A stretch of DNA of 17,651 nt from Promethearchaeota archaeon (GTDB lineage: Archaea > Asgardarchaeota > Thorarchaeia > Thorarchaeales > Thorarchaeaceae): assembly GCA_027031765.1 (NCBI GenBank), contig JALVPN010000047.1:1-17651 (forward strand), read 5' to 3'. A program made the position numbers and the translations under genes. The notes under the pieces were generated by a model, which saw only the letters and a program-made list of their open reading frames with translations, ran no database searches and was not told where the DNA came from. Below are positions 277 through 17,651 of this stretch, piece by piece. Positions within the stretch are counted from its first letter, which is position 1. Each line of letters begins with the position of its first letter.

Positions 277-442
277 GATAAATAGTCCGGGCCACACGCC
301 ACCCCCCTGTCCGGTGTACCCGTACCTGGCGGTGTGGCCGGGCCTGGTACACAATGGGAACGTTCATAAGACAGTCATGGGCCGTGCGCCCACTACAGTA
401 AATTGACGTAACGGAGTTCGACAATCTCCGAACTCAAGGAGG
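277..442. promoter_or_regulatory. Upstream control region of the mvaS operon: AT-rich TATA-like boxes (278-284, 363-370, 398-406), GC hairpin (290-301/327-339), inverted repeat GAGTTCG-N8-CGAACTC (414-435) and SD AGGAGG (437-442)
   Basis: These are the only AT-rich patches in a GC-rich intergenic region. The inverted repeats and SD were read directly. Which box is the functional TATA is uncertain. Confidence 0.45.
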
Positions 443-452
443 CACAAGTTGG

Positions 453-1496: not shown

Positions 1497-1523
1497 GATG
1501 TTATGTTTCAGGGGATGGCACAG

Positions 1524-2684: not shown

Positions 2685-2691
2685 TATGATA

Positions 2692-3117: not shown

Positions 3118-3137
3118 CTCCTGAGTGCACGCTATGG

Positions 3138-3163
3138 CCCGGGGCAACGTTGCGTGCCCCGGG
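3138..3163. terminator. Perfect 9-bp GC stem-loop just after the DUF35 stop (possible transcript 3'-end structure)
   Basis: CCCGGGGCA (3138-3146) and TGCCCCGGG (3155-3163) with an 8-nt loop. There is no T-tract, so a terminator role is uncertain. Confidence 0.3.
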
Positions 3164-3267
3164 TGCCCACCCTCTTGACCACGGGGACTGGGGCTCACTT
3201 CATGGCCCGACGTGACTACCTCGTTACGGGACTGTACTGCAGGTCTGGCGTGGTCACCGCCAACGGC

Positions 3268-3395
3268 CGGTGTGTCGCACCACACGACGTGGTCACCATA
3301 CGGTGATACTCCGGCGAGAGAAGGAGACCGGTCCCACACCCGTTGTGTCACGACACGGGACAATGTTGCGGTGTGTCGCCCCCCACATGGTCGCG
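3268..3395. repeat. Imperfect direct repeat in the convergent intergenic region (CGGTGTGTCGC...TGGTC at 3268 and 3369)
   Basis: 11-bp exact core CGGTGTGTCGC at 3268-3278 and 3369-3379 with similar downstream sequence. CGTGGTCACC also occurs twice (3249 and 3288). Confidence 0.5.
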
Positions 3396-3442
3396 GTACG
3401 GTAGTCCGGCATGACCAATCCGGGAGGGTTACGGACAGGCCG

Positions 3443-4132
3443 TCATACCTCTATCACTGTCGTCGAGCGGACTGCTGGGAATGCAACATTGTAGACGGTA
3501 GAACGGCCGAGCACTGCGTGGTGCTTTACGGAGTTGTGGACATGGCCGTGGACGACAAGGTCTGGCTGGGTCTCCAGGACCACCGAGTAGAACTTCTTGC
3601 TCCCGAGGACGCCGAAGGCGCGTGAGTCCTCCCCTTCGCAGGTCTCGATGCAGGGGCTGTAGTGCATCAGCAGCACAGTGATGTCTGCGTTGTGCGATAC
3701 AGACACGAGGAGTTGGGCTGCACGTTCTGCGCGCCTCTCGAAGACGCTCTTCACGTTTGGGATGTTCCTCTTCTGCCAGACTGTGGGCCTGTCCAGGGAG
3801 CCCTGTGTCCCCACGATGCCCACGCGGCGCCGCCGTCGACGGACAATGGTCGCTGTCTCGTCGAGCAGCATGACCCTGCGGCCCACGGCCTCTCTTATCT
3901 GGTCACGCACATCTGTGTACTCCTCGTTTCCAAAGCAGGCCACCAGTGGGAACCCGGTGCCCAGCGTGTCGTCTATGACATCGAGTACCCTCGGGTACTC
4001 CTCCACGTTGCCCCGGAGTATCATGTCGCCTGCAATCAGGAAGAGGTCGGGCCGCTGTCGCCCGGTGAGGTCTTCTCTGAACTGTTCGAGGTATCGTGGA
4101 CTGTGGATATCGGCGACGGCCAGTATCCTCAT
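3443..4132 (-). CDS. Calcineurin-like metallophosphoesterase (Icc-related)
   Basis: 229 aa; DIH, AGD, GNEE, MH and HGHVH metal-ligand motifs in canonical order. Confidence 0.9.
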   Translation of the reverse strand: MRILAVADIHSPRYLEQFREDLTGRQRPDLFLIAGDMILRGNVEEYPRVLDVIDDTLGTGFPLVACFGNEEYTDVRDQIREAVGRRVMLLDETATIVRRRRRRVGIVGTQGSLDRPTVWQKRNIPNVKSVFERRAERAAQLLVSVSHNADITVLLMHYSPCIETCEGEDSRAFGVLGSKKFYSVVLETQPDLVVHGHVHNSVKHHAVLGRSTVYNVAFPAVRSTTVIEV

Positions 4133-4170
4133 CTTCCAGCACTCTGACTGCGTTGGGTGGTCTCCTCAAC

Positions 4171-4219
4171 GGGTCACAGATATTAAAGTCTGGATGTTGA
4201 ACAGGTCAGCAGGTGACCC
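4171..4219. promoter_or_regulatory. Probable bidirectional promoter: TATTAAAG/CTTTAATA box (4181-4188) flanked by inverted repeat GGGTCAC (4171-4177) / GTGACCC (4213-4219); SD AGGTGA (4211-4216)
   Basis: Single AT-rich box in the 89-bp gap between divergent genes, at a plausible distance from both starts. Confidence 0.55.
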
Positions 4220-4221
4220 AT

Positions 4222-5223
4222 ATGGGCGGAACCTGGGCGCTGAACCTCTTTGACCGGCTCCACCTCGGACACCACGTCATGCTTGAACGGCTGGCTGACA
4301 TGCCTGCTCCCGTTGCCTGTGTCACTGGCGGCGAGCTGGTGGCCCACGACCTCGAACTGGCACAGATAGTCCAGCCACTGGCACTGCGCGTCCAGAGGCT
4401 CAAGGAGTACCTGCGTGACGTCGGACTTGACGACACGATACAGGTCACGAGTCTCACGTCATTCAGGGAGCTCCTGCGCATCGAGGGGGCGACGCAGTTC
4501 CTGATGTATGCCGGGCCGTGCTGTGACGAGATCAGGGAACACGGCCTGAGGGCCCGACTCCAGGTCTGGCCGGACGACAAGTTGGAATACCTCAAGCCGG
4601 TGCGGGCGCAGGACGGTGAGAAGCTGACGTCAGCAAGGGTACGGAAAGGGGAGGTCGACCGGATGGGGCGGCTCCTGCGAGGGACTGAGGAGCCACCGAG
4701 GCGGCTGCCACTCCACGACCGGGCGCGGCTGCAGACGCCGAAGGGCGAGGTGCTCGATAAGCGTGACGGCCCTCCGGAGGACAGGGCTGTGCGCATGATT
4801 GAGCGGGAAACACCACCACTCGTCATCGCAGTAGGTGACGTCACCTCCGCCACTCTGATCCGTGCCGGCTTCCAGCCCGATGTCTGCATTGTCGATGGGG
4901 CCACCAAGCGCGGTGCCTATGGCGGAGTGGTCCATGCAGAGCGCCAGTATCTCGTCTACAACCCGGCAGGTGTCCTATACCCCGAGGCCTGGTCTGTTGT
5001 GGGCACTGCGGTGGACGATGGCTGCAAGTCCGTGGTCTTTGTCGACGGTGAGGAGGACCTCCTCGGGTTCCCTGCGGTCCTGCTGGCACCAGAGGGTGCT
5101 GTCATGCTCTATGGACAGCCGGACGTTGGGATTGTCTGGGTGCCGGTGACGGAGGAGAACCGTACACGGGCACGCAGGTTCCTCGAAGAGATGCCAGTCA
5201 TTGGCCCCGGTCCAGCCGCATAG
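4222..5223 (+). CDS. coaD: Fused phosphopantetheine adenylyltransferase-like domain (archaeal CoaD) plus DUF359 GTP-dependent dephospho-CoA kinase
   Basis: The N-domain has FDRLHLGH (HxGH) and QDGEKLTSARVRKGEVDRMGRLL, a typical archaeal PPAT C-terminus. The C-domain has VGDVTS, IVDGATKR, NPAG, VDGEEDLL and LYGQP (DUF359). ATG 4222 follows the SD AGGTGA. Confidence 0.85.
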   Translation: MGGTWALNLFDRLHLGHHVMLERLADMPAPVACVTGGELVAHDLELAQIVQPLALRVQRLKEYLRDVGLDDTIQVTSLTSFRELLRIEGATQFLMYAGPCCDEIREHGLRARLQVWPDDKLEYLKPVRAQDGEKLTSARVRKGEVDRMGRLLRGTEEPPRRLPLHDRARLQTPKGEVLDKRDGPPEDRAVRMIERETPPLVIAVGDVTSATLIRAGFQPDVCIVDGATKRGAYGGVVHAERQYLVYNPAGVLYPEAWSVVGTAVDDGCKSVVFVDGEEDLLGFPAVLLAPEGAVMLYGQPDVGIVWVPVTEENRTRARRFLEEMPVIGPGPAA

Positions 5224-6727
5224 CCGACGGGAGCATCCTGATCCAGTCAGTGGGCGCTATGTGGTCGCCCAGTTCATGCTGTGCGAGTGTGCCTGCCACA
5301 CCCGACACGAACGCTGCTGCCGCGGCCGCACTCATTGCCCCCTCGCCCCGGGCCAGCAGGGCTGCCGTGATGCCTGTGAGGACATCGCCTGTGCCCCCAA
5401 CGGTCATTGCCGGGACGCCGGTCCTGTTCAGCTTGTAGTCACCGGACGGGGCTGCGACCACGTCCACTGGGCCCTTGAGGAGGACAGTTGCCTGGTAGCG
5501 CCCGGCGGCCTCCACTGCTGCTGAGACCCTCTGCTGGGTGTCCTCTGGAGCGGGTGCACTCCTCCCGAGCAGCACGCACAGCTCGCCCCAGTGAGGTGTC
5601 AGGATGCTGTCCTCGGGGCTGAGCCTCACGCCCGAGTCTGCCAGTGCCTTCAGGCCGTCTGCGTCAATGACCACTCGCCGGCCCATCCCCATTAGCTCGC
5701 GAACAAACTCAACAACAGCGCTCTTCGTGGCACTGTCCAGGCCGAGCCCGGGGCCAAGGGCAACGACATCCGAACGTTGGGCGAGCGACACCGCGGTCGC
5801 AAGGGCCTCCTCACAGAACACCTCAGTCCCTGTCGGGTGCACCATGAGCTCTGGGCCGTAGGCCCTGATGGCCGGGACTACCGGGTCGGGTGCGAGCACG
5901 GTGACGAGGTCGGCCCCGGTCCTCAGTGCAGCCATTCCAGCAAGTGCTGGTGCACCAGAGTATACGTTGCTGCCCCCAACGACGAGGATGCGTCCAAAGT
6001 CGCCCTTGTGGGCCCTGGCCGGGCGTGGCCTGGCGAAGAGCCACAGGTCACCCCTGCCGCATGTCCGTGCAGCTTCGGGCGGGATGCCGATAGGGACGAC
6101 GTGGAGCTGGCCGACGTACTCCTCTGCCGACAGGAGGCCGACCTTTGGGGCATGGAGTGTCACTGTGTGGTGTGCCCTGACCGCGTCGCCGTGCACCTCT
6201 CCCGTGTCCGAGTCGATGCCCGTAGGCACATCAATGGCGTACCTTATGCCCGGGGCCTCGTTGATTGTCCGCACTGCTGTCAGTATGGGCTCTCTGAGGC
6301 GGCTCCGGACACCGAAGCCCAGCAGTGCGTCGACCACCACATCAGCCTCACGGACGGCGTCGCAGGAAACCACTGCGCTCTCGGTCTTGAGCACACCGTG
6401 TCTGATGTCGTGGAGCCGCTCCAGGATGCGCCAGTTCATGGCGGTGTCCGGACTACGGATTCCCTCCTCCGGCCCGATGAGGTATACCTCGACGTCGGCA
6501 CCGCTCTCACACAGGTGCCGTGCTGCGACCATGCCGTCGCCGCCATTGCCACCCGGGCCACACAGGACCACGACCCTGCGTCCACTCACGGGCGTCGTCT
6601 GTCCTATGACCCTCGCCACTTCCCTGCCGGCGTTCTGCATCAGCATGGACAGGGTAACACCGAGGTAGTCCGAGTTCAGTTCCAGAACGCGCATCTGCTT
6701 GGTGGTCATCGGCCTGGTGTCCATCAT
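5198..6727 (-). CDS. nnr: Bifunctional NAD(P)H-hydrate epimerase / ADP-dependent NAD(P)H-hydrate dehydratase
   Basis: YjeF_N motifs (GPGGNGGDG, DALLGFG, IDVPTG) plus carbohydrate-kinase-family motifs (HKGDFG, YSGAPAL, GPGLG, DADGL, LTPHWGE, GGTGDVL). SD GGAGGT precedes ATGATG at 6727/6724. The 3' end overlaps the convergent coaD fusion by 26 nt. Confidence 0.95.
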   Translation of the reverse strand: MMDTRPMTTKQMRVLELNSDYLGVTLSMLMQNAGREVARVIGQTTPVSGRRVVVLCGPGGNGGDGMVAARHLCESGADVEVYLIGPEEGIRSPDTAMNWRILERLHDIRHGVLKTESAVVSCDAVREADVVVDALLGFGVRSRLREPILTAVRTINEAPGIRYAIDVPTGIDSDTGEVHGDAVRAHHTVTLHAPKVGLLSAEEYVGQLHVVPIGIPPEAARTCGRGDLWLFARPRPARAHKGDFGRILVVGGSNVYSGAPALAGMAALRTGADLVTVLAPDPVVPAIRAYGPELMVHPTGTEVFCEEALATAVSLAQRSDVVALGPGLGLDSATKSAVVEFVRELMGMGRRVVIDADGLKALADSGVRLSPEDSILTPHWGELCVLLGRSAPAPEDTQQRVSAAVEAAGRYQATVLLKGPVDVVAAPSGDYKLNRTGVPAMTVGGTGDVLTGITAALLARGEGAMSAAAAAAFVSGVAGTLAQHELGDHIAPTDWIRMLPSAMRLDRGQ

Positions 6728-6965
6728 CCTTACCTCCGTGCGCCGCCTTCTTGTCACAGCACGTTAATGAACACTTGGTCGTGTGTCAATACCCCTCTTG
6801 AAGGCTGTGCCATGCGCGCCCCACTCGAACCCCGGTCGCAGCACCACCACAGTCCGGCAGCACGCATGTCTGGCATCCGGTCAGCCGGTGGTCAGGTATG
6901 GTGTGTCGCCTCTGCACCTCTGCGCCCGTCCAGTCCGCTCTGTCCCTCCGACCCGCGTGCCCTTT

Positions 6966-6981
6966 GCAAACGCTTTTATGA
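6966..6981 (+). promoter_or_regulatory. BRE-TATA promoter of the redox operon (GCAAACGC-TTTTATGA); probably a leaderless first gene
   Basis: TTTTATGA at 6974-6981 with an A-rich BRE-like segment upstream. ATG 7005 lies about 24 nt downstream with no SD, which is typical archaeal leaderless geometry. Confidence 0.65.
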
Positions 6982-7004
6982 CCCTAGCAGGCGCAGGCCC
7001 AACC

Positions 7005-7466
7005 ATGCCCGACCAGACGCGTGCTGAGCTAGCCTCACGACTCATCCCGATGCTGCAGGAGATCCAGGAGGAGCTCGGGTACATAGCACCTGAGGCTGTT
7101 GAGTGGTTGTCCGAGCACCTGGGTGTCAGCAAGCAGGAGATATTCGGTGTGGCGACATTCTACAACTTCTTCAGGCTCAACCCTCCCGGGCGGCACGAGA
7201 TCCACGTCTGTCTTGGGACAGCGTGTCATGTGGGTGGTGGTGAGAAGCTCCTCGACACAATCCGGGAGAAGCTCGGTATTGAGCCGGGCGAGACCACCCC
7301 TGATGGACGGTTCAGTCTGGAGCGTGTGGCCTGTGTGGGTGCCTGTGCCCTCGCGCCGACGGTGGTCGTTGATGGAGAGGTCCACGGGCGCATGACGCAG
7401 CGCTCGCTGAAGCGCCTCCTGGACCGCATCGAGCGTGAGGACCGGGAGGCCATGGGGGGCAAGTAG
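7005..7466 (+). CDS. NuoE-like [2Fe-2S] subunit (HydC/BfuC/StnA-type)
   Basis: GVATFY, VCLGTACHV and ACVGACALAP (four Cys). Start set at MPDQ (7005) from the promoter position and family length; the upstream 74 codons of the ORF call are not protein-like. Confidence 0.92.
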   Translation: MPDQTRAELASRLIPMLQEIQEELGYIAPEAVEWLSEHLGVSKQEIFGVATFYNFFRLNPPGRHEIHVCLGTACHVGGGEKLLDTIREKLGIEPGETTPDGRFSLERVACVGACALAPTVVVDGEVHGRMTQRSLKRLLDRIEREDREAMGGK

Positions 7467-7503
7467 CACGGTCAGGTACCAGTGCGCAGGGAGCGTGTGA
7501 GGA

Positions 7504-9345
7504 ATGGAGTCCGACGATGTTATTGAGGTCCTCGTCTGTCGAGGCACTGGCTGTGAGTCTTCAAAGTCCGATGTCCTCCAGGAGAGACTCGTCGAGGAGG
7601 TGCAGCGGCACGGCCTTGACGGGCGCGTTGTGGTCAAGCGTGTGGGGTGCCATGGCCTGTGTCAGCAGGGGCCTGTGATTGCCATCGAGCCCGAGGGGCT
7701 CTTCTACTGCCAGGTCAAGGAGTCAGACATCCCTGAGATCGTGGAGTCGCACTTTGTGAAGGGCCAGCCCGTGGAACGCCTGTTCTACGAGGCCCCGGAC
7801 GGTAAGAGGATACCACACTACCGCGACATCCCGTTCTACTCCGAACAGCAGCGTGTCATCCTCGCCAAGTCGGGACACATCGACCCCGGTGAGATTGACG
7901 ACTATGTCGCTGCTGGCGGCTACAAGGGCCTTGAACGTGCCCTCAAGGAGATGACGCCTGATGAGGTCGTGGCTGAGGTCGAGAGGTCAGGCCTCCGGGG
8001 ACGTGGTGGTGCGGGGTTCCCGACAGGCCTCAAGTGGAAGTTCGCACGGCGCTCACCGGGCGATGTCAAGTACGCTATCTGCAACGCCGACGAGGGCGAC
8101 CCCGGGGCGTTCATGGACGGCTCCATACTGATAGCAGACCCCCATGCAGTGCTCGAAGGGCTGTCCATTGCTGCGTATGCCATTGGTGCACATGAGGCCT
8201 TCATCTACGTGCGCCACGAGTACCCGGCGGCCGTGGCATCCCTCAAGAGGGCCATTGCACAGTCGTACGAGCGCGGCTTCCTCGGCAAGGACATCCTTGG
8301 CACTGGCTTTGACCTCGACATCAAGATGATGGAGGGTGCGGGTGCCTTCGTCTGCGGTGAGGAGACCGCACTGATGGCCTCCATTGAGGGGCGCCGTGGG
8401 ATGCCGCGACCACGCCCACCGTTCCCAGTCGAGTCGGGCCTCTGGGGCAAGCCCACTGTCATCAACAACGTCAAGACCCTTGCTGCGGTGTCGCTCATCC
8501 TGCGCAACGGTGCTGACTGGTTCCGCTCCATCGGCACGGAGGGCAGTCCGGGCACAGCAATATTCTCACTCACGGGCAAGGTGCGCAACACGGGCCTCGT
8601 CGAGGTGCCAATGGGTGCGACACTGAGGCACATCATCTTTGACGTGGGCGGTGGTGTGAAGGAGGGGCGCAAGTTCAAGGCTGTCCAGACGGGTGGTCCT
8701 GCTGGTGGGTGCCTCCCTGCTGAGAAGCTCGACCTGCCTGTTGACTTCGACTCGCTGAAGGCTGCCGGTGCAATCATGGGCTCCGGCGGGATGATTGTAA
8801 TGGACGAGTCCACCTGCATGGTCGATGTTGCACGCTACTTCCTGTCGTTCACGCAGGCCGAGTCGTGTGGCAAGTGCACGCCGTGTCGTGTTGGCACACT
8901 CCAGATGCTGCGGCTCCTGGACAAAATCCGTTCCGGACGCGGTGAGGAGGGTGACATCGAGAAGCTCCTCGCCCTGTGTGATACCGTGGTGAAAGGGTCG
9001 CTGTGCGGCCTCGGCCAGAACGCACCGAACCCTGTGTTGACGACGATACAGTACTTCCGCGACGAGTACGAGGCCCACATCCGTGACAAGGTATGTCCTG
9101 CGATGGTGTGCAAGGATCTCATCAAGTTCGTCATTGACCCGGACAAGTGCATCGGATGTGGTGCCTGCGCACGGATATGTCCCACCGGTGCGGCCAGGGG
9201 CGAGAAGGAGAGCGTACACACCATTGAGCAGGAACTGTGTATCAAGTGTGGTGCATGCTACGAGGTCTGTCCGCCGAGGGCGCGGGCGGTCATGAAAGTG
9301 CCGGTGGGACAGACCCTTGAGGGGGCAAAGGGAGGTGCTGAGTAG
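7504..9345 (+). CDS. NuoF-like FMN/NADH subunit of the electron-bifurcating HydB/BfuB type
   Basis: 613 aa. N-terminal thioredoxin-like [2Fe-2S] (CRGTGC...GCHGLC), GLRGRGGAGFPTG, NADEGDPGAFMD, GAFVCGEETAL, ESCGKCTPCR...SLCGLG [4Fe-4S], the extra site DESTC...H-x5-C-x4-C, and a C-terminal 2x[4Fe-4S] ferredoxin domain. Confidence 0.93.
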   Translation: MESDDVIEVLVCRGTGCESSKSDVLQERLVEEVQRHGLDGRVVVKRVGCHGLCQQGPVIAIEPEGLFYCQVKESDIPEIVESHFVKGQPVERLFYEAPDGKRIPHYRDIPFYSEQQRVILAKSGHIDPGEIDDYVAAGGYKGLERALKEMTPDEVVAEVERSGLRGRGGAGFPTGLKWKFARRSPGDVKYAICNADEGDPGAFMDGSILIADPHAVLEGLSIAAYAIGAHEAFIYVRHEYPAAVASLKRAIAQSYERGFLGKDILGTGFDLDIKMMEGAGAFVCGEETALMASIEGRRGMPRPRPPFPVESGLWGKPTVINNVKTLAAVSLILRNGADWFRSIGTEGSPGTAIFSLTGKVRNTGLVEVPMGATLRHIIFDVGGGVKEGRKFKAVQTGGPAGGCLPAEKLDLPVDFDSLKAAGAIMGSGGMIVMDESTCMVDVARYFLSFTQAESCGKCTPCRVGTLQMLRLLDKIRSGRGEEGDIEKLLALCDTVVKGSLCGLGQNAPNPVLTTIQYFRDEYEAHIRDKVCPAMVCKDLIKFVIDPDKCIGCGACARICPTGAARGEKESVHTIEQELCIKCGACYEVCPPRARAVMKVPVGQTLEGAKGGAE

Positions 9346-11640
9346 ATGCCCAAGATGACGATTGATGGACGAGAGGTCGAGTTCGGCCCCGAGTGCGAGA
9401 CCGTACTGGACGTGGCCCGCTCCGCAGGGATCTACATCCCCACACTATGTGACCATGACGAGCTGGAGCCCTACGGCGGCTGTCGACTGTGCATCGTTGA
9501 GATTGAGGGGTTGCGCGGTTACGTCCCTGCGTGTACCACTGCGGCCAAGGACGGCATGGTGGTGCGCACGGCCACCGAGGAGCTCATGCGGCTCAAGAAG
9601 GAAATCCTCCAGCTGCTGCTCATAGAGCACCCGAGCGCATGTCTTGTCTGTGCTGAGTGGCCTGCCTGCCTGCAGTACCGCACACAGGCATACAGGGCTG
9701 GCCGTGTCACTGGTTGCAACACCTGTCCCCGCCGTGATGACTGCGAGCTGCGCGAGGTGGTCGAGCACATCGGCATCACAGGCCTTGACTATACACCCGA
9801 GTACCGTGACATCCCGGTCGAACGCTCAGACCCGTTCTATGACAGGGACTACAACCTGTGCGTGCTGTGTGCGCGCTGTGTACGGGTGTGTCAGGAAGTG
9901 CGGGGCACAGGCGCCATCACATTTGTGAAGCGTGGCCACGAGACCCGTGTTGACACTGCATTTGGTACCAGCCATGTCGACTGTGGCTGCTGGTTCTGCG
10001 GTGCATGCATCGATGTCTGTCCCACTGGCGCCCTGTACCCGCGGCTCTCCAAGTGGGTCGGCATGCCCGAGTCGGAAGAGGTGACGACCTGCATGCTCTG
10101 TGGCACCGGCTGTCAGTTCCGTGCTGACATCAAGTGGGGCAAGGTCATGGCCACGGGCCCGGCACCGCCTGACAGTGCACCCAATGGCAGGCACCTGTGC
10201 GTCCTCGGCAGGTTCTGTATCCCGCCACTTGTGAACGCTGGCGACAGGCTGCGTGCACCGCATGTCCGTCGTGACGGCGAGATGGTGCCTGTGTCTTGGG
10301 ACGAGGCACTGCAGGCGGTTGTGGAGGGCCTCAAGGGTGTCCCCCCTGGACGTATCGCAGTACTCGGGGGCCCCCACCTGACCACAGAGGCTGCCTACCT
10401 GTTGCAGAAGCTGGCACGAGTGGCCCTCGGCACTCCAGACGTTGCGTCACGTGGCTGTGAGTTCGCGTCGCTGGTATACCGTGTCCTCGGTGCAGACGGG
10501 GCCCTCGACAGGGTGGCCCAGCTGGAAGACATCTCCAGGGCTGACTGGATTGTCTCACTTGGCGGGGACTTCGTGGAGTCGCACCAGGTGGTCGCAAAGA
10601 CTGTGTACGGGGCAGTACGCCGTGGCGTCCCACTTGTCCACATAGGCCAGCCCGGAAAGAACCTGCGGCGGTGGACGGTGGAGGACGTCCTCGTGGACGA
10701 GCCGGTGGCACCCGCGGTGGTACGTGTCCTCGTCGAGGGGTCTGGTGCTGTGGAGGGCGTGCCTGAAGAGCAGCTCAGACGGGTCATCGATATCGTGTCG
10801 CAGGGCCGTGGTGTCGTACTTGTCGGGCCGCGGGTGCTTGAGCTCGACAGCCCCTCTGACCTGCTGCGTGATGTGCTGCGTCTACTGGGTGATGATGGGC
10901 GTCTTGTGCCCCTGTTCCTGAACGGCAACGAGGCCGGCGTTGTCAGGGCCGGTGCTGTCCACGACATGCTGCCCGGTCCCGCCTCGGTGGCTGCCGGTGC
11001 CGCGTCCTACGAGGAGAAGTGGGGCCGTGCTGTCGCTGCGGGTGCTGACCTTGGTGCCCTCCGGGAGAAGGCCCGCGCTGGCCAGGTCGATGCTGTCATC
11101 GTACTGGACGGTTCCATCCCTGTCGACGGCTTCGAGGGAGTGCCCTTCATTGTCTACCAGTCCCCGTTCCCGTCGCCATGGCTCGAACACGCGTCAGTGG
11201 TACTGGCGTCAGCGATGTCCATTGAGGAGTCCGGTACCATGGTCAACCACGAGTTCCGGGAACAGGCCCTGAAGGCCGTTGTGCCGCCCCCTGGCGAGGC
11301 GCGTCCTGACTGGGAGGTGCTTGCCGAGCTTGCGCGTCGGATGGGGGCTGCAGGCTTCGAGTACGGCAGCCCCGGGGAGGTCTGGGACGAGCTGGCCGGG
11401 CTTGAGTGCAGGGTCGGCCCCACAGATACTGCAGCAGGTGATGCGTGGCAGCCGGTACCACGTGAGGAGACCGAGTGGTACCCACGGTACCGTGGGGCAA
11501 CACTTGCAGAACGGATTGAAGACCTGGCGGTGCTCATCGAGGCGCTACCTGGACGGCGGGCGCCGCCACCTACCGAGTCCCTTGAGGACATGATGCGAGA
11601 GGCCCGTGAGAAGTGGGCTGCGAGGACGGAGGAGGTGTAG
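9346..11640 (+). CDS. NuoG/FdhA-like multi-FeS subunit (BfuA-type) with a degenerate, probably cofactor-less molybdopterin-oxidoreductase domain
   Basis: [2Fe-2S] (TLC...GGCRLC...C), expanded His/Cys cluster region, 2x[4Fe-4S] (CVLCARC; CWFCGACIDVCP), CxxCxxGC...C cluster, and recognisable Mo-enzyme segments (EESGTMVN, PGEARPDWEVL). No C-terminal molybdopterin-dinucleotide-binding domain and no H-cluster motifs. Confidence 0.85.
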   Translation: MPKMTIDGREVEFGPECETVLDVARSAGIYIPTLCDHDELEPYGGCRLCIVEIEGLRGYVPACTTAAKDGMVVRTATEELMRLKKEILQLLLIEHPSACLVCAEWPACLQYRTQAYRAGRVTGCNTCPRRDDCELREVVEHIGITGLDYTPEYRDIPVERSDPFYDRDYNLCVLCARCVRVCQEVRGTGAITFVKRGHETRVDTAFGTSHVDCGCWFCGACIDVCPTGALYPRLSKWVGMPESEEVTTCMLCGTGCQFRADIKWGKVMATGPAPPDSAPNGRHLCVLGRFCIPPLVNAGDRLRAPHVRRDGEMVPVSWDEALQAVVEGLKGVPPGRIAVLGGPHLTTEAAYLLQKLARVALGTPDVASRGCEFASLVYRVLGADGALDRVAQLEDISRADWIVSLGGDFVESHQVVAKTVYGAVRRGVPLVHIGQPGKNLRRWTVEDVLVDEPVAPAVVRVLVEGSGAVEGVPEEQLRRVIDIVSQGRGVVLVGPRVLELDSPSDLLRDVLRLLGDDGRLVPLFLNGNEAGVVRAGAVHDMLPGPASVAAGAASYEEKWGRAVAAGADLGALREKARAGQVDAVIVLDGSIPVDGFEGVPFIVYQSPFPSPWLEHASVVLASAMSIEESGTMVNHEFREQALKAVVPPPGEARPDWEVLAELARRMGAAGFEYGSPGEVWDELAGLECRVGPTDTAAGDAWQPVPREETEWYPRYRGATLAERIEDLAVLIEALPGRRAPPPTESLEDMMREAREKWAARTEEV

Positions 11641-11642
11641 TG

Positions 11643-12518
11643 ATGGCCGGGAGGATAATTGAGAACGAAGAGGTCGTGCCGAACGTCCGGCGACTGGTAC
11701 TTGAGGCCCCGCAGATAGCACGGCGTGCAAGGCCGGGACAGTTCATCATCGTGATACCAGACGAGGTGGGCGAGCGTGTCCCGTTCTCACTTGCGGACTG
11801 GGACGCTGATGCCGGGACAATCACGGCGTTCTATCTTGAGGCTGGTGTGTCGACGCTGAAGCTGTCGCGGATGCAGCCCGGAGAGTCTGTGCATGCGCTG
11901 GTGGGGCCACTGGGAAGGCCCACCGTGATAAAGAAGTATGGCACCGTACTGGTCGGCGGTGGCTGCTATGGCCTCGGTGCCATGTATCCACTCGTACGTG
12001 CCTTCAAGGAGGCGGGCAACAGGGTGGTCGCGCTCATGGAGGGGCGCACCTCGTACGTCATCTACAACGAGGAGAAGGTGCGTGAGGTGGCTGACGAGGT
12101 CATCATATGCACCGCCGACGGCTCGCGCGGCATCCGGGGGCACGTAAAGGAGGCGTTCGAGGCGCTCAGTGAAGAGGGACGCAAGTTCGACTACGCACAC
12201 TTTGTGGGGTGTACCTACATGATGATGATATCCTCGAAGGCGACCGAGCCCTACGGCATACCCACAGTGGTGTCACTGAACGCCCTGATGGTGGACGGCA
12301 CTGGCATGTGTGGCTGTTGCAGGGTGCTGGTAGGTGGCGAGACCCGGTTCGCCTGTGTTGACGGCCCCGACTTCGACGGCCACAAGGTGGACTGGGACCA
12401 GGTCTTCTCAAGACTCGCGGCCTACGTCCCACAGGAGAACCTCGCGTACCAGTACCTCAAGTGCAGGGAGGCGGGCTCCGTGAGGGCCAGCCCGGTCCGT
12501 GAGGAGGTGAGGCCATGA
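11643..12518 (+). CDS. nfnA: NfnA/SudB-like FAD-[2Fe-2S] subunit (FNR/PyrK fold), divergent
   Basis: PGQFII...GERVPFSLAD, GPLGRP and MVDGTGMCGCCRV...FACVDGPDFDGH motifs. SD GGAGGTG precedes ATG 11643. Directly upstream of nfnB. Confidence 0.88.
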   Translation: MAGRIIENEEVVPNVRRLVLEAPQIARRARPGQFIIVIPDEVGERVPFSLADWDADAGTITAFYLEAGVSTLKLSRMQPGESVHALVGPLGRPTVIKKYGTVLVGGGCYGLGAMYPLVRAFKEAGNRVVALMEGRTSYVIYNEEKVREVADEVIICTADGSRGIRGHVKEAFEALSEEGRKFDYAHFVGCTYMMMISSKATEPYGIPTVVSLNALMVDGTGMCGCCRVLVGGETRFACVDGPDFDGHKVDWDQVFSRLAAYVPQENLAYQYLKCREAGSVRASPVREEVRP

Positions 12519-13966
12519 GCAAGCGGCCGCAGCTCACTCCACGCGAGCGGATGGCAATACCGCGTGCCAAGATGCCTGAGCAGGACCCGGCCGCCCGGGC
12601 CACCAACTTCAGGGAGGTGCCACTGGGCCTGACACCGGAACAGGCGATGCGTGAGGCCGAACGGTGCCTGAACTGCCGCAAGAGGCCGTGTGTGGCCGGC
12701 TGTCCGGTGGGCGTACAGATCCCTGAGTTCATCGCCCTCGTGGCAGAGGGCAGGTTCGTCGAGGCCGCCCGGCTGATAAAGGAGACAAACGTGCTGCCTG
12801 CAATCACGGGGCGTGTGTGTCCGCAGGAGGTACAGTGCGAGGGCAACTGCACGCTCTTCAAGAAGTACGGTGGCGTGTCAATCGGTGCCCTGGAACGCTT
12901 TGTGGCGGACTATGAGCGTGAACACGGGCTTGTCGAGATACCCCCGAAGGCAGAGCCCACTGGAAAGAAGGTGGCCATCATTGGCTCTGGCCCCTCCGGT
13001 CTGACCGTGGCCGGCGACCTGATCAAGCTGGGGCACGAGGTGGTGGTCTTTGAGGCACTGCACGAGCCTGGTGGCGTCCTTGTGTACGGCATCCCCGAGT
13101 TCCGGTTGCCAAAGGACATCGTGCGGGCAGAGGTGGACTACCTCGTCCGCCAGGGTGTCAAGTTCGAGATGAACGCCGTTGTCGGGATGACGTATACCAT
13201 GGACGAGCTCTTTGACGAGCTCGGTTTCGATGCCGTCTACATCGGGGTCGGTGCCGGCCTGCCGAGGTTCATGGGCATACCCGGCGAGGACCTCAACGGT
13301 GTCTACTCGGCGAACGAGTACCTCACACGCTCCAACCTCCTGAAGGCGTACCTGTTCCCGGACTATGACTGTCCGCTGCCGCCCGCCAAGAAGGTCTGCG
13401 TTGTCGGTGGTGGGAATGTGGCCATGGACGCCGCACGCACGGCGCGTCGCCTCGGTGCTGATGTGACAATCGTCTATCGCCGTGCACGTGAGCAGCTGCC
13501 AGCTCGTGCTGAGGAGGTGCACCATGCCGAGGAGGAGGGCATCCACTTCCAGCTCCTCTCGAACCCGGTGCGGATCATCGGGGAGGCCGGCCGTGTCGTG
13601 GGCATGGAGTGTATCCGGATGCGCCTTGGCGAGCCGGACGAGAGCGGTCGTCGACGGCCAATACCCATTGAGGGCTCAAACTTCAATATCGACTGCGACC
13701 AAGTGGTCATTGCAATCGGCTCCGCTGCCAACCCGCTGCTCACAAAGACCCTCAAGACCGTCAAGCTGAACAAGTGGGGCTACATAGAGGTCGACAAGAA
13801 CAACCGGACGAGCGACCCACGGATATGGGCTGGTGGCGACATAGTCACGGGTGCGGCGACCGTAATCTCTGCGATGGGTGCGGGCCGGATTGCTGCACGC
13901 TCAATCCACGCCTATCTCATGGGCCTGCCACAGCCCGGTGAGGAGGGCGCTGAGGGAGAACAGTGA
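12515..13966 (+). CDS. nfnB: NfnB/SudA (GltD-like) NADPH-dependent bifurcating-FAD subunit with 2x[4Fe-4S]
   Basis: CLNC...PCVAGCP, GRVCPQEVQCEGNC, LERF (Glu ligand), GSGPSG, YGIPEFRLPK, GGGNVAMD, YRR (NADPH) and GGDIVTGAATV motifs. ATGA overlap with nfnA. Confidence 0.93.
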   Translation: MSKRPQLTPRERMAIPRAKMPEQDPAARATNFREVPLGLTPEQAMREAERCLNCRKRPCVAGCPVGVQIPEFIALVAEGRFVEAARLIKETNVLPAITGRVCPQEVQCEGNCTLFKKYGGVSIGALERFVADYEREHGLVEIPPKAEPTGKKVAIIGSGPSGLTVAGDLIKLGHEVVVFEALHEPGGVLVYGIPEFRLPKDIVRAEVDYLVRQGVKFEMNAVVGMTYTMDELFDELGFDAVYIGVGAGLPRFMGIPGEDLNGVYSANEYLTRSNLLKAYLFPDYDCPLPPAKKVCVVGGGNVAMDAARTARRLGADVTIVYRRAREQLPARAEEVHHAEEEGIHFQLLSNPVRIIGEAGRVVGMECIRMRLGEPDESGRRRPIPIEGSNFNIDCDQVVIAIGSAANPLLTKTLKTVKLNKWGYIEVDKNNRTSDPRIWAGGDIVTGAATVISAMGAGRIAARSIHAYLMGLPQPGEEGAEGEQ

Positions 13967-14110
13967 CCGGTGGCTGGCGGCAAGTGTCGCCCCAGCCCCT
14001 CACCTCGCCTGCACTCCAAGCAGCACATGTGGTGGCGCTGTCCTCTCTCTGAGGCTGTGGCCCGGCTGTCCTGACCGTGGTGTGGGGCCCGTCGCACATG
14101 TTGGTACAGC

Positions 14111-15079
14111 TCACGTGTCGGCCTGTCCTCGTGCTGGAGCGTCCGTACCCCGGTCATGGCCGGGTGTGTCCCCGGTGGTCGCGCCACTGTCCGTGCTGTC
14201 CCCCCTCGCCCTGTCCCCGCGCCCTGTGATGAACAACAGGTAGTCCTTCAGCCTGCGGAGCGGGACGGAGAACTGTGGCACTCTCTCCATGTAGGCCCGA
14301 TAGTCGTCGCCGAAACGCTCCAGCAGTTCTCTCTCTTCGGCCCTGATGAGCAGCCTGATCCCCACGTATGCGATTGCGCAGGTCGCGAGGCCATACACCG
14401 ACAGGTAGAGCAGAAAGATCCCCCTGGCAAAGAGCTTGACAGTGTAGTAGATGGGGTGTCGCAGGACCGAGTAGATACGGTGCTGCTGCACCTCCGCATC
14501 CTCAGGATAGTACACGTACAGTACGACGACGTAGTCTATCCCGATGGTCCGGAACCCGGCCCATGCTGTCAGGACCGCAAGGAGGATGTGGATGCCCCCG
14601 GCAACGGCCCTGAGGTACACCTCCCATGCTGGTGCACCCAGGAGCACGAGGAACGACGTTGAGAAGAGCGTCGTCAGTCCGTTCACCGGTGGCCCCGGTG
14701 GCAGCGCAGACACAGGGAGCAGCCCATTGGCGAGCACTGACATCATGAGGGCAACACCTGTGGCACCACGCATTAGCGCCCGTGGGTATGCGCGCCTGCG
14801 CCCGTACTCCCGCACCAGGCGCTCACGGCCCGTCAGTGCACTGACCACAAGCAGGAGCCCGATGGCCTCCACGACCAGTGGGCCAACGACTGGCATGAGG
14901 GGCTCAAGTGTCGCCAGCACCTGCACACCCGTGGACACTCGTGCAGCGGTCTCCAGCCAGAACATCAGGAGCAGTGCAAGCACTCCACACGACAGTGCTG
15001 TTGCCGGGAACACGAGCAGGCGGTGCCCAGGATGGTCAGGGAGCCTGCGTCGCACGTTGTCAAGACCCTTTATCTTCAT
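14111..15079 (-). CDS. ICMT/PEMT-family integral membrane S-adenosylmethionine-dependent methyltransferase
   Basis: Several hydrophobic segments, followed by IYSVLRHPIY and EERELLERFGDDYRAYMERVPQF, the two family motifs. Start at MKIKG (15079) is preferred; the ORF call extends to 15103. Confidence 0.82.
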   Translation of the reverse strand: MKIKGLDNVRRRLPDHPGHRLLVFPATALSCGVLALLLMFWLETAARVSTGVQVLATLEPLMPVVGPLVVEAIGLLLVVSALTGRERLVREYGRRRAYPRALMRGATGVALMMSVLANGLLPVSALPPGPPVNGLTTLFSTSFLVLLGAPAWEVYLRAVAGGIHILLAVLTAWAGFRTIGIDYVVVLYVYYPEDAEVQQHRIYSVLRHPIYYTVKLFARGIFLLYLSVYGLATCAIAYVGIRLLIRAEERELLERFGDDYRAYMERVPQFSVPLRRLKDYLLFITGRGDRARGDSTDSGATTGDTPGHDRGTDAPARGQADT

Positions 15080-15250
15080 GTCCAGTCGGGGTACACGACG
15101 CACTGCACCATCATAAGTGATGTGGGCCCAGTGGCGTCCTTCGTGGTGTCCTGTGGTGCATGGGACGGGACTGACGCAGTCGCCATGTCCACGGCCGGTG
15201 AGCGTTGCCGGACTGCTTCTCCTGAGCGCAGCCCATAGGAGCAGGGGGTG

Positions 15251-17056
15251 CTATTTGGGAGGTGCTGCGCTATGGTCCTCCCGGTCCACGTATATGCGTC
15301 TGACCTCTCTTATGACCAAGCCCTCAAGGTCGCGGGGTCTGCGCACAGAGACCACATGGCCGCCAGCGCTCTCAAGGGCAGCGGCCACCTCCTTGTCGAG
15401 GCGTCCAATGTAGAACATGAAGAAGAGGTGCCCCATGTTAGTAATCTGTCTGACCATGTCGATGAACTCGTCCCAGTTGTAGATCTCCGCGTCTGTGATA
15501 GTGAGGACCATGGCCGTTGGGTGGCCCCTGCACAGTGCAACGACCTCGTCCGTGGGCGCGACCGTACCGCCGCCCTGGTAGTCGAGCAGGACGCGTTCGA
15601 TGTCGTCCCGTTCGCGTGTCCACTTGGTGGTCTTGCAGTCGTCAGAGAAGTTGATGGCTGCAACACTGCACCCCTTCCTGAAGGCAACGCTGGCGGCTGC
15701 AAATGCGCACAGGAGTGCAGTGTGGTATGGTCCACGTGGGCCCTTCTTGCCCACCGACCACTCCATGGAACCGCTGGAGTCGATGACCAGCAGCATGTCT
15801 GGCAGTCCGGGCATCGACCCATGGCCTGACAGACTGGTGGTGTCCCACTTACGCGTGGTGACGTTTGGGATGAGGAGCGGGAACGTCTGGAGTGACTGTA
15901 CGACATCGAGTTGTTCTGCCGGGTCACCGAGCCGCCAGACCACGGGGCTCACGGGTGTGTCACCCTGGTGCTTCGGCCTTGACACATCGAACTCGAGCAT
16001 CCCCCGCACCTTGGCCCTGTACCAGTACTTGAGGGCCACCTCCCTGTCACCGTCGAGGCCGGCGAACCCGAGTGCCACCCGGAGGTCTTCCAGACTGCCG
16101 CCCTGCTGCTCGACCTCAATGGCGACCCTCTCACGTTCTGCCCCGACATCCCTGTCCCCGTGTCCCATGCACGCCTTGGCCCGGTCGCCATCACGTACTT
16201 CTGTCGGGTCGCCCATCAATGCGTCCACGTCCACCGGGACGCGTACTGGCGCCGTCCTGTCCGGGTCGTGGTCACCAGTCCCGCCGGGCACCAGCCTGAC
16301 CGGCACCTGACCGGCACCTGACAGTTCCTGCGCCACCTCTGGCTCCCACTCAGCGATTATCTTTGCAATCTCAGCAGTGGCCTTTGGCCAGCGCCGCTCG
16401 TCGCGTAGCCGCTCTCTTGCCACCTGTACAATCCTCGTTGCAGCGTCCTTCGTGCGCGTGTCTATGGGGATGTGCGGCGGTATTTCGAAGCCCCACATCT
16501 GGCGGTAGCAGGTGACCGCGAGGCGCCAGAGGTCGGAGTGTGCGTCGGCGTCCACGGCCGAGGCCGAGCTGGCGATTGACGCCTGCACACGGGAACGGGT
16601 CAGTCCCGGGAACCTCTCCATGAGGAAGCTGTCGACCACCAGGTCTGCGAACAGGTTGCACACGAACATGCCCGTCTGGGCGCTCACGTGTTTCCTCGTT
16701 GCGTTGAACATCCTCGCATGGGTCGGGCCGTCGTACGGGCACAGGAGGTAGTGCTGCATCTCATGGTGGCACACCGACCTCAGGTACTCACGCTCCTCCT
16801 CGGTCGTCAGCCCCTCCGGCACACCGGCCGTGTTGAGGTGCACCGTCCACGTCTTCGGGTCGATGTAGAAGAAGCTGCTCCCATCAGGCTCGTACTCGAC
16901 GATGACATCTGGTAGTGGCGGTGTGTAGAAGTCCTCAAGTGCCTGCGCCCATGCCAGCTGTGCTGCATGTCTGAGGCGCGTCGCCCTGTCGCCGTCACGT
17001 CCTGGTGTTGCCCTCTCGCGTGCCCCCCTGAGCCATCTCCTGAAGACGTTGACCAT
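15251..17056 (-). CDS. Putative metallopeptidase (HExxH) plus C-terminal von Willebrand factor A domain protein
   Basis: HEMQH at 16751-16765 followed by NLFADLVVD. vWA MIDAS motifs DSSGS, GGT and ITD. SD GGAGGT lies 7 nt upstream of ATG 17056; GTG 17089 is an alternative. Confidence 0.85.
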   Translation of the reverse strand: MVNVFRRWLRGARERATPGRDGDRATRLRHAAQLAWAQALEDFYTPPLPDVIVEYEPDGSSFFYIDPKTWTVHLNTAGVPEGLTTEEEREYLRSVCHHEMQHYLLCPYDGPTHARMFNATRKHVSAQTGMFVCNLFADLVVDSFLMERFPGLTRSRVQASIASSASAVDADAHSDLWRLAVTCYRQMWGFEIPPHIPIDTRTKDAATRIVQVARERLRDERRWPKATAEIAKIIAEWEPEVAQELSGAGQVPVRLVPGGTGDHDPDRTAPVRVPVDVDALMGDPTEVRDGDRAKACMGHGDRDVGAERERVAIEVEQQGGSLEDLRVALGFAGLDGDREVALKYWYRAKVRGMLEFDVSRPKHQGDTPVSPVVWRLGDPAEQLDVVQSLQTFPLLIPNVTTRKWDTTSLSGHGSMPGLPDMLLVIDSSGSMEWSVGKKGPRGPYHTALLCAFAAASVAFRKGCSVAAINFSDDCKTTKWTRERDDIERVLLDYQGGGTVAPTDEVVALCRGHPTAMVLTITDAEIYNWDEFIDMVRQITNMGHLFFMFYIGRLDKEVAAALESAGGHVVSVRRPRDLEGLVIREVRRIYVDREDHSAAPPK

Positions 17057-17085
17057 TGCCCGTACCTCCTGTCCCGCCGCCAGCA

Positions 17086-17651
17086 TCACCCTCCGGTGTT
17101 GGCCCTGATGACCTCGCAGAGCTCCTGTGCGTCGGCACCACCAGACACCTCGATGAACACTGCGGACTCTGGTGAGGCCCCTGTGGTATAGACCACGAGG
17201 GTGAGCCCATCAGCCCGGAGGATCTTGCGCTTGGGCGGTGTGAGGGTCTCCTTGAGGGCCGTTGTGAGGGCCGGGTGCCGGATGCTGACCTCAGTCCACA
17301 GGTCCTGCCACTGTTCAAAGGTGAGTGAGAACCGTGTCAGTGTGAGCCTGTGTAGGGCCTCGGAAACACGGCCCAGCAGAGTCGTCCTGTTGGGAAGTCC
17401 GTGTTGTGCCAGCAGGGTGTCGCGCAGCTCCGACAGCGCTTGGATGTCCTCGGCAGCAAGTGCCCTCTCAATCGTGCGCACCACCTTCACATAGTTGGCA
17501 CGTGTCAGCTCCTTCGCGACCCGGATATAGTCCAGGCGGACGAGGAGGTCGCTCTTGCCCATCTCCTTGAGGCGTTCCATAGCGTCCTCCGGTCCCGTGC
17601 CACGGCGCAGCTCGTCCATGAGGTCCATGGCAGCCCTGCGCTGTGCGAACC
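17086..17651 (-). CDS. Hypothetical protein, probably the C-terminal part of a gene that starts beyond the right edge
   Basis: Helical, typical-codon ORF. The frame remains open upstream of ATG 17628 to the window edge (...FAQRRAAMDL) with no SD visible. Its stop abuts the vWA gene. Confidence 0.7.
   Translation of the reverse strand, partial: FAQRRAAMDLMDELRRGTGPEDAMERLKEMGKSDLLVRLDYIRVAKELTRANYVKVVRTIERALAAEDIQALSELRDTLLAQHGLPNRTTLLGRVSEALHRLTLTRFSLTFEQWQDLWTEVSIRHPALTTALKETLTPPKRKILRADGLTLVVYTTGASPESAVFIEVSGGADAQELCEVIRANTGG

Follow-up and report, generated by a model that had tools for sequence, protein, structure and literature searches.

Do genes for two kinds of electron-bifurcating machinery, encoded side by side, specify two enzymes or one? 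The question is raised by a 17,651-nt stretch of DNA from a Promethearchaeota archaeon of the Thorarchaeaceae (assembly GCA_027031765.1, contig JALVPN010000047.1, positions 1 to 17,651), referred to here as the window. Positions 7005-13966 of its (+) strand hold five co-directional open reading frames (ORFs) in the order bfuC-bfuB-bfuA-nfnA-nfnB, i.e., a HydABC-like core of the bifurcating Bfu family followed by the two subunits of the transhydrogenase NfnAB (also NfnSL). A first-pass annotation, made from the sequence alone, had proposed that the separate NfnA and NfnB pair acts as the input module of the HydBC/Bfu core in a candidate five-subunit complex with two potential bifurcation sites, which it took for a possible serial cascade or a possible evolutionary intermediate between NfnAB and Stn. 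The input-module proposal is supported by a conserved gene order, by BfuA::NfnA fusions and by a dedicated NfnA clade. In our estimation, with a probability of roughly 0.7, the products of all five genes assemble into a single soluble iron-sulfur flavoprotein of several different subunits, made of the Bfu core, BfuA and a dedicated NfnA-NfnB module for the third substrate.

Gene order, fusions and a Bfu-linked NfnA

The survey of the nuoE-nuoF-nuoG-like-nfnA-nfnB order suggested by the first-pass annotation was run, and it returned 22 loci across Archaea and Bacteria in which the order C-B-A-NfnA-NfnB is kept between differing flanks. Seven of these loci belong to Thorarchaeota, and the six further Thorarchaeota genomes span five genera; because the entire neighbourhood is syntenic there too, conservation within this group alone says little. 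Outside Thorarchaeota, the five-gene order, with frequent overlaps of stop and start codons, was found in Desulfobacteraceae Eth-SRB1, a deltaproteobacterium, Undinarchaeales, Bathyarchaeota and Thermoplasmata, as well as, among other Asgard archaea, in Heimdallarchaeota and four more families. Among 301 Asgard genomes sampled, a BfuB-like gene was present in 73 and an NfnB-like gene in 240. About 19 further Asgard genomes have a BfuB and an NfnB gene on the same contig, with 2.5-3.3 kb between them.

A single stop-free ORF of 887-1080 aa encodes BfuA together with NfnA in four Asgard genomes, which belong to two families. A HMMER search of 1.84 billion representatives, with one fusion as query, recovered the same BfuA::NfnA architecture in 9 mutually distant clusters, all of them with the NfnA signature described below. 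Because of these fusions, nfnA and nfnB were counted as encoding further subunits of the Bfu enzyme. The binding of BfuA to NfnA was also addressed by complex prediction, in which BfuA residues 85-764 were folded with NfnA, each with its own alignment. The pair scored 0.58, against 0.01 for the best of three controls, a result classed as weak support: 58 of 80 solved complexes passed the mark, as did 2 of 110 mismatched pairs, and passing scores of at most 0.60 came from just 7 of the 80 solved complexes, yet from both passing mismatches. The runs shared at least 57% of contacts, with a partner pLDDT (predicted local distance difference test) of at least 82. Such a pass adds a little to the case, because the fusions had already made binding likely.

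The NfnA of these loci is distinguished by its sequence. In a tree of 38 NfnA sequences, the branch that divides all 17 linked or fused copies, including bacterial and DPANN ones, from the whole set of 21 stand-alone copies has a Shimodaira-Hasegawa-like approximate likelihood ratio (SH-aLRT) support of 100. This is illustrated by four positions, numbered from the ATG at 11643. In the glycine-rich nucleotide loop (residues 105-112, GGGCYGLG; 11955..11978, +), Cys108 and Tyr109 turn the GGGxGxA of stand-alone NfnA into GGCYGxG, with Cys108 in 100% of linked and fused sequences and Gly in 100% of stand-alone ones. In residues 189-195 (GCTYMMM; 12207..12227, +), Cys190 takes the place of the Pro of the 'GP..MM' motif typical of the ferredoxin-NADP+ reductase (FNR) type, the Cys being found in 100% of linked and the Pro in 100% of stand-alone copies, so that GP..MMK becomes GC..MMM in the linked and fused set. 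Glu133 (12039..12041, +), the residue on which the second strand of the nucleotide-binding domain ends, is Gly in stand-alone NfnA. Finally, Cys274 (12462..12464, +) lies in a C-terminal tail of the form Y-Q-x-x-H/Y-x-C-R/K and occurs in 80% of linked or fused copies, in 0% of stand-alone copies and in 89 of 120 database homologues. Cys108, Glu133 and Cys190 were together present in 120 of the 120 best NfnA homologues from a collection of 5.8 billion proteins, and the four of these homologues that were picked from other phyla were all Bfu-linked. In the FNR fold, the glycine loop and the GP..MM motif serve to bind the nucleotide, and a Glu ending the second strand is equally typical of NAD-binding sites and of a lost site. 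Because its NAD-binding motifs are remodelled, NfnA may be no second NAD(H) site.

NfnB has no comparable subfamily signature, with just three weakly diagnostic columns that differ. In its tree, the linked Thorarchaeota copies join linked copies of other lineages and not the stand-alone copies of Thorarchaeota; fused-type NfnB lies near the stand-alone NfnB of Lokiarchaeia type, so the linkage label needs two changes. At the gene level, nothing corresponds to a free-standing heterodimer: linked NfnA always stands behind bfuCBA or is fused to BfuA. None of the other NfnA-like proteins of this genome exceeds 31% identity, and the linked type is the only NfnAB present. In two Thorarchaeota relatives that lack bfuCBA, ordinary nfnAB adjoins the same Nnr and orf15251 genes. 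It thus looks as if the five-gene unit replaced ordinary Nfn at one locus, which points to a related physiological role, and the Nnr neighbourhood retains its pyridine-nucleotide theme whichever form of Nfn sits there. As controls, Asgard Bfu clusters with a true FdhA, with an [FeFe] HydA, or with a short BfuA and a GltB-like gene were inspected; they have no nfnAB and carry their own catalytic module adjacent.

Some of the loci met in this survey are of interest in their own right. In another Asgard family, bfuC and bfuB are followed by a 587-aa [FeFe] HydA (locus L120, G214:C1, ~1944700-1948900; Fe_hyd_lg_C 300 bits, Fe_hyd_SSU 77 bits), which makes it a HydABC-type cluster in an archaeon, a type not yet found in Archaea according to Schut et al. 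(2022). Locus L080 holds, 3 kb past a fused Bfu-Nfn cluster, another Bfu cluster (15748-19900, G053:C48) that consists of bfuC, bfuB, a minimal BfuA of 232 aa and a gene with a glutamate-synthase (GltB-like) FMN (flavin mononucleotide) region; this second cluster may represent another unnamed Bfu type. In a genome of Thermoplasmatales (CP070724; locus L075 10440-15600), bfuA is followed by 2 kb without called genes, then by small ORFs and a trypsin-like protease gene, and a mobile element possibly displaced nfnAB there. The BfuA ORF of this genome measures 812 aa, and the protein is labelled partial by NCBI.

Subunits, cofactor motifs and gene neighbourhood

The small subunit BfuC (bfuC, 7005..7466, +; 153 aa) is NuoE/HydC-like, with a thioredoxin-like [2Fe-2S] domain (2Fe-2S_thioredx, PF01257, 163 bits), and its gene adjoins bfuB 37 nt 5' of it. 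BfuB (NuoF/HydB-like; bfuB, 7504..9345, +; 613 aa) carries the Pfam domains of an N-terminal thioredoxin-like [2Fe-2S] protein, Complex1_51K, NADH_4Fe-4S and a C-terminal 2x[4Fe-4S], i.e., both additions typical of the Bfu family besides the FMN site and the [4Fe-4S] cluster of NuoF. Its best match was the HydB of the NiFe-Bfu enzyme of Acetomicrobium mobile (7t2r_B, 858 bits), to which residues 8-592 align, DEGDPGAFMD included. With the B subunits of five solved bifurcating enzymes it aligned over its full length, scoring 683-858 bits, whereas non-bifurcating NuoF/FdsB proteins reached at most 430 bits, with the core region alone aligned. Judged by this architecture, BfuB is a full bifurcation-type HydB, as had been claimed in the first-pass annotation from its domains and its GAFMD motif; it is also the sole Complex1_51K gene of the genome. 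An N-module of complex I (NuoEFG) is not what these genes resemble, given the extra domains of BfuB and the location of NuoD and NuoH on other contigs.

BfuA (bfuA, 9346..11640, +; 764 aa) is NuoG-like and apparently non-catalytic. It has the Pfam domains Fer2_4, NADH-G_4Fe-4S_3, Fer4_Nqo3, Molybdop_Fe4S4 and Molybdopterin, with Cys/His columns invariant among 52 sequences, and its motifs predict a [2Fe-2S], a His-ligated [4Fe-4S], a 2x[4Fe-4S] and an N7-like [4Fe-4S] centre ahead of an eroded molybdopterin-like domain. No Molydop_binding domain (PF01568), H-cluster domain, Fer4_20 or Pyr_redox domain was detected by the Pfam scan. One Cys aligns with the Mo-ligand Cys of Rhodobacter FdsA, and the next residue is Glu and not His. 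In orthologues of 522-536 aa, some 200 residues are missing from the molybdopterin-like domain, the Cys-Glu stretch included, and hence this domain is, to judge from the alignments, a scaffold and no catalyst. The first-pass statement that the third subunit has neither an H-cluster nor an intact Mo site holds with the qualification that the Mo-ligand-aligned Cys is retained and that His became Glu. A formate dehydrogenase alpha subunit (FdhA/FdsA) with a working Mo site was considered for BfuA and rejected on the missing PF01568 domain, the Cys-Glu pair and the deletion of that stretch in short orthologues; true Asgard BfuA of the FdhA type has both the Molybdopterin and the Molydop_binding domain.

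Three further motifs of BfuA bear on its place in the complex. Residues 95-108 (9628..9669, +) form H-x3-C-x2-C-x5-C, the pattern of a His-ligated cluster of 'A3'/N5 type, with H95, C99, C102 and C108 invariant; according to Schut et al. (2022), such a cluster is the electron entry point in type 3 Bfu enzymes. As in that type, BfuA combines a His-ligated cluster with the loss of a catalytic site, and nfnA and nfnB are the next genes. About 25 residues past the His-cluster motif, a second, family-specific C-x2-C-x5-C (C124, C127, C133; residues 124-133; 9715..9744, +) is invariant in the 52 sequences. It was present in all Nfn-linked BfuA checked, whereas the BfuA of other Asgard Bfu clusters, FdhA-like or HydA-type, lacks it. 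Family-specific cysteines are thus found in both partners: in NfnA they lie at the site of the former NAD(H) pocket, and in BfuA beside the proposed entry cluster. At the C-terminus, a Y-R-G...D motif (residues 715-726; 11488..11523, +), with Y715, R716, G717 and D726 nearly invariant, lies just ahead of the fusion point, where it precedes the linker to NfnA in the fused proteins.

NfnA (NfnS-like; nfnA, 11643..12518, +; 291 aa; NF004862, 340 bits) and NfnB (NfnL/GltD-like; nfnB, 12515..13966, +; 483 aa; TIGR01316, 611 bits) are 55-62% identical to characterised NfnSL, with 276 bits between NfnA and NfnI-S of Pyrococcus furiosus (5jca_S) and 548 bits between NfnB and NfnB of Thermotoga maritima (4ylf_B). 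The pair retains the [2Fe-2S] Asp/Cys3 ligands and the ERxPx(S/T), RCx2Cx4Cx3CPV and GRVCPQExQC motifs, the flavin (flavin adenine dinucleotide, FAD) strand of NfnA reading ERVPFS. By alignment to 4ylf_B and 5jca_L, NfnB has the features of NfnL, i.e., two [4Fe-4S] motifs with invariant cluster cysteines, an FAD domain with an Arg near N5 and an NADPH domain. It retains both the Arg aligned with R201 of T. maritima and the CPQE Glu of the proximal cluster.

Variants of NfnB were noticed elsewhere. In a family that we labelled f22 (L076 10737-12470, G148 and others), the Bfu-linked NfnB is about 100 residues longer at its C-terminus (577-588 aa), and the extension has no Pfam match. The genome studied here also encodes, on contig C109 (L109 3411-6167), a 918-aa protein with an N-terminal FAD-type Rossmann segment and a GltD/NfnB-like module (Fer4_20, Pyr_redox_2); frames of 910-938 aa that match NfnB, similar in size to this protein, are common in genomes of Lokiarchaeia type.

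The five genes are tightly packed. Apart from the 37 nt between bfuC and bfuB, the TAG of bfuB directly abuts the ATG of bfuA (0 nt), bfuA and nfnA are separated by 2 nt (TAG-tg-ATG), both junctions being read from the sequence, and nfnA and nfnB share an ATGA overlap of stop and start. A GGAGG-like (Shine-Dalgarno-like) motif precedes each internal start. With these signals of translational coupling, the packing counts in favour of a single complex. The start of bfuC at 7005 is where its orthologues begin to align, from residue 1. A candidate archaeal TATA box, TTTTAT (6974..6979, +), lies 26-31 nt 5' of this ATG and, by its position, matches what is expected of an archaeal promoter for a leaderless mRNA. 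Hence, the operon described in the first-pass annotation stands as far as the co-directional genes, their spacing (37, 0 and 2 nt) and the ATGA overlap are concerned; the 'one promoter' comes down to this candidate box.

The source is a metagenome-assembled genome of 2.95 Mb, 95% complete, and the only sequencing run listed with this DNA is a hydrothermal-vent metagenome, which may be its source. The best BfuA homologues are named Candidatus Thorarchaeota or Promethearchaeota, and a BfuA search of genome contigs matched just distant alphaproteobacterial NuoG genes (26-31%). Upstream in the window, at 453-3117 (+), genes for HMG-CoA synthase, acetoacetyl-CoA thiolase and a DUF35 (OB-fold/zinc-ribbon) protein form the archaeal layout for the early steps of the mevalonate pathway, and a DUF359 gene is also among the neighbours; these genes fit an archaeon. 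At 5198-6757 (-), the NAD(P)HX epimerase/dehydratase gene (Nnr) is divergent from bfuC. No gene for a hydrogen sensor was seen in the window. Downstream, at 14111-17628 (-), a gene for a PEMT-like methyltransferase is accompanied by two ORFs (612 aa and 180 aa) without a Pfam match; these two are syntenic 3' of the cluster in Thorarchaeota relatives and flank stand-alone nfnAB in genome G009.

One complex or two enzymes, one bifurcation site or two

In the proposed complex, NAD(H) would react at the FMN of the BfuB-BfuC core and ferredoxin (Fd) would be reduced at the C-terminal 2x[4Fe-4S] of that core, BfuA would be the cluster wire, and NfnA would be held at the C-terminal side of BfuA as a docking subunit. 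At its FAD, NfnB would oxidise NADPH or reduce NADP+, and electrons would cross between the Nfn module and the cluster chain of BfuA. The complex would connect the NADP(H), NAD(H) and ferredoxin pools in place of ordinary NfnAB. From the canonical motifs, 13 clusters are expected in its roughly 2,300 residues, 8 [4Fe-4S] and 5 [2Fe-2S] if the Cys/His site of BfuB counts as one [2Fe-2S]. From the sequences, we infer that the unfused proteins of the window bind one another and that their reaction is a bifurcation or confurcation of the transhydrogenase type. Contact would be made via NfnA with its remodelled NAD(H) pocket, and the invariant cysteines of NfnA and BfuA would possibly hold extra metal centres, which would wire the flavin of NfnA to the His-ligated cluster of BfuA.

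Several points weigh against this proposal. NfnA and NfnB retain all canonical cofactor motifs and could act as a free-standing enzyme; the Thermoplasmatales genome mentioned above, which is complete, has bfuC-B-A of the Nfn-linked type without linked nfnAB, and elsewhere just a stand-alone-type NfnA (39-40% identity); the BfuA/NfnA prediction is a weak pass without a reported interface; no RNA run is among the listed sequencing runs that contain the stretch; a high-potential Nfn branch feeding the Bfu core would be unable to drive a second bifurcation when NADPH is oxidised; and conserved adjacency can also arise where two enzymes with common pools are regulated together. If the latter were the case, NfnAB would be an ordinary transhydrogenase and BfuABC an independent enzyme with its partner encoded elsewhere, the two being linked by co-regulation and common pools. 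This appears unlikely to us. The identity of the pair to characterised NfnSL, with its motifs intact, and its being the only NfnAB of the genome would agree with two enzymes, as would the one Thermoplasmatales exception and the placement of nfnAB in various metabolic gene clusters reported in a review (Liang et al., 2019). However, two separate enzymes would hardly account for BfuA::NfnA fusions in several lineages or for a linked NfnA that forms a separate clade with its own invariant changes; in four loci, ordinary nfnAB is found right beside the five-gene set, so that the linked pair can hardly be taken for just the Nfn of the cell; and BfuABC alone would be left without a third substrate. 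Candidates for such a substrate module were sought in the genome. The absence of a NiFe large subunit stated in the first-pass annotation is valid within the window, and five exist elsewhere: three cytosolic and two of membrane type. One of the two Mvh-type [NiFe] hydrogenases adjoins HdrA and MvhD, the other MvhD, and the third cytosolic enzyme belongs to group 3b and has its own beta and gamma subunits; no [FeFe] hydrogenase domain was found in the genome by the domain search. Since each cytosolic [NiFe] enzyme has its own partners, a hydrogenase partner for BfuABC encoded elsewhere is unlikely, and no hydrogenase or NuoD/NuoH cluster looks like an orphan module for it. It is very unlikely, though conceivable, that BfuCBA belongs to one membrane complex of the NuoD/NuoH type as its detached input (N) module for NADH and ferredoxin, with NfnAB unrelated to it. 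Such a split enzyme would be consistent with the NuoG architecture and inactive molybdopterin-like domain of BfuA, with the two NuoD and NuoH clusters of the genome (contigs C127 and C12) and with the Nuo-Bfu enzymes predicted by Schut et al. (2022). In those predicted enzymes, BfuABC is encoded inside the nuo operon, whereas here it lies outside. Moreover, the NuoG-like domain that would dock to the membrane arm is half deleted in orthologues and C-terminally fused to NfnA in other lineages, and this BfuA family comes with nfnAB, a single exception aside.

Within one complex, the Nfn subunits could be employed in more than one way. The E' values given by Schut et al. are -280 mV for NAD, -380 mV for NADP and -500 mV for ferredoxin. 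It is possible, and we regard it as a tentative option, that the Bfu flavobicluster alone bifurcates and that NfnAB is NADPH input alone, NfnB being a plain NADPH dehydrogenase and NfnA, which would no longer bind NAD(H), an electron-transfer adaptor linking NfnB with BfuA by means of FAD, [2Fe-2S] and perhaps a new centre held by cysteines. The net reaction would be that of Stn/NfnABC, 2 NADPH + NAD+ + 2 Fd(ox) -> 2 NADP+ + NADH + 2 Fd(red), and this 2:1:2 stoichiometry should be energetically unproblematic. The changes GGGxG to GGCYG, GP..MMK to GC..MMM and Gly133 to Glu in every member speak for it, together with the identity of the fusion partner of BfuA, which is NfnA. Indeed, contact through NfnA is favoured because its pocket is remodelled and it is the fusion point, which fits a single bifurcation site best. 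The loop of NfnII of P. furiosus (GAYTG) also has the Tyr, and the Nfn review reports that the NADH-binding domain of NfnII differs from that of NfnI (Liang et al., 2019); the Stn paper gives StnC as a GltD-type FAD protein that works without bifurcation. On the other hand, the R201-aligned Arg and the CPQE Glu retained by NfnB are both tied to bifurcation, the Glu being Lys in Stn; the two [4Fe-4S] clusters of NfnB would become a dead-end branch; and Glu133 fits an NAD-binding site as well as a lost one. Because the bifurcation features of NfnB are intact, its low-potential branch may instead lead to BfuA while NfnA reduces NAD+, according to 4 NADPH + 3 NAD+ + 2 Fd(ox) -> 3 NADH + 2 Fd(red), which is feasible by the E' values and could attain very low potentials. 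The opposite connection, with the high-potential branch leading to BfuA and a second bifurcation in the Bfu core, would be feasible just in reverse, where NADPH would be generated at a waste of ferredoxin. That two bifurcation sites work in series, with the family-specific cysteines binding new metal centres, appears doubtful to us. Such centres would lie at Cys108, Cys190 and the tail Cys of NfnA and at Cys124, Cys127 and Cys133 of BfuA, and would connect the flavin of NfnA, or else the low-potential branch of NfnB, with the cluster chain of the Bfu core. If this cascade were true, the stoichiometry, e.g., 4 NADPH + 3 NAD+ + 2 Fd(ox), would be unlike that of any known transhydrogenase, with a reach of about -680 mV, and in reverse NADPH would be made with half the ferredoxin that Nfn needs.

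Comparison with known systems

The literature treats NfnSL and Bfu as alternative solutions, and in the bfuCBA-nfnAB loci both are encoded as one unit, fused in some lineages. In the Stn paper it is stated that 'there is no NfnA homologue in Stn', that Nfn is without a HydBC homologue and that most species have one system or the other. In the same way, the T. sibiricus paper presents NfnSL and NfnABC as two unrelated enzyme kinds. The Bfu classification of Schut et al. (2022) has Nfn-Bfu just as type 1, with a fused GltD domain, and the four sequence patterns (A-D) in the Nfn review do not include bfuCBA-nfnAB (Liang et al., 2019). No description of this arrangement or of the BfuA::NfnA fusion was found in the literature, for which open-access full text was searched. 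As the first-pass annotation had predicted, the proteins carry generic labels in the databases, such as 'molybdopterin-dependent oxidoreductase', 'formate dehydrogenase alpha subunit' and 'ferredoxin--NADP+ reductase', and current annotations of such genes point to formate dehydrogenase, to complex I or to proteins like glutamate synthase. The arrangement occurs in Asgard archaea, which include the closest archaeal relatives of eukaryotes, and in at least four other phylum-level lineages, which suggests a widespread node of NADH/NADPH/ferredoxin balance in anaerobes. It offers a natural test case for the coupling of two bifurcating sites, for the way in which Bfu cores gain new input modules and for the role of a remodelled NfnA pocket.

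With the type 1 enzymes Nfn-Bfu/NfnABC/StnABC (Sporomusa ovata 8oh5, Caldicellulosiruptor saccharolyticus 9bov and Thermococcus sibiricus 9n5u), the system shares the HydBC-type core with all its clusters (BfuB matches their B subunits at 710-721 bits), an A subunit of NuoG type whose FdhF-like domain is inactive and a GltD/NfnB-type NADPH-FAD module with two [4Fe-4S] clusters (NfnB, 354-306 bits), and the same three redox pools are expected. In contrast, their GltD module is inserted in the A subunit and they have no NfnA homologue, whereas NfnB is here a separate protein of canonical NfnL type, with the CPQE Glu (Lys in Stn) and the R201-aligned Arg, and is accompanied by a specialised NfnA. 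The pair resembles NfnAB/NfnSL of T. maritima (4ylf) and P. furiosus NfnI (5jca) in the presence of both subunits, the order nfnA-nfnB, the overlapping genes and the retained cofactor motifs; it differs in being encoded behind bfuCBA or fused, and in an NfnA with Cys108, Tyr109, Glu133, Cys190 and a Cys-bearing tail. The closest structural relative of BfuB belongs to the type 3 prototype, NiFe-Bfu HydABCSL of A. mobile (7t2r), in which two extra subunits are likewise encoded directly after ABC; its A subunit and BfuA (176 bits) have in common the His-ligated cluster and a C-terminal domain without catalytic function. Its extra subunits are the [NiFe] small and large ones, whereas here they are NfnA and NfnB, and BfuA has the additional CxxCx5C. 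Bam-Bfu (BamBCDEFGHI), proposed by Schut et al. (2022), is an earlier case of a predicted complex in which two modules could bifurcate; its second module is an HdrA with a tungsten benzoyl-CoA reductase, unrelated in sequence to the Nfn part. By its sequence features, bfuCBA-nfnAB is neither a member of Stn/Nfn-Bfu type 1 nor a free-standing NfnAB, and it is best filed as a conserved, uncharacterised hybrid, i.e., a type 3-like Bfu with a specialised NfnSL pair as its putative input module.

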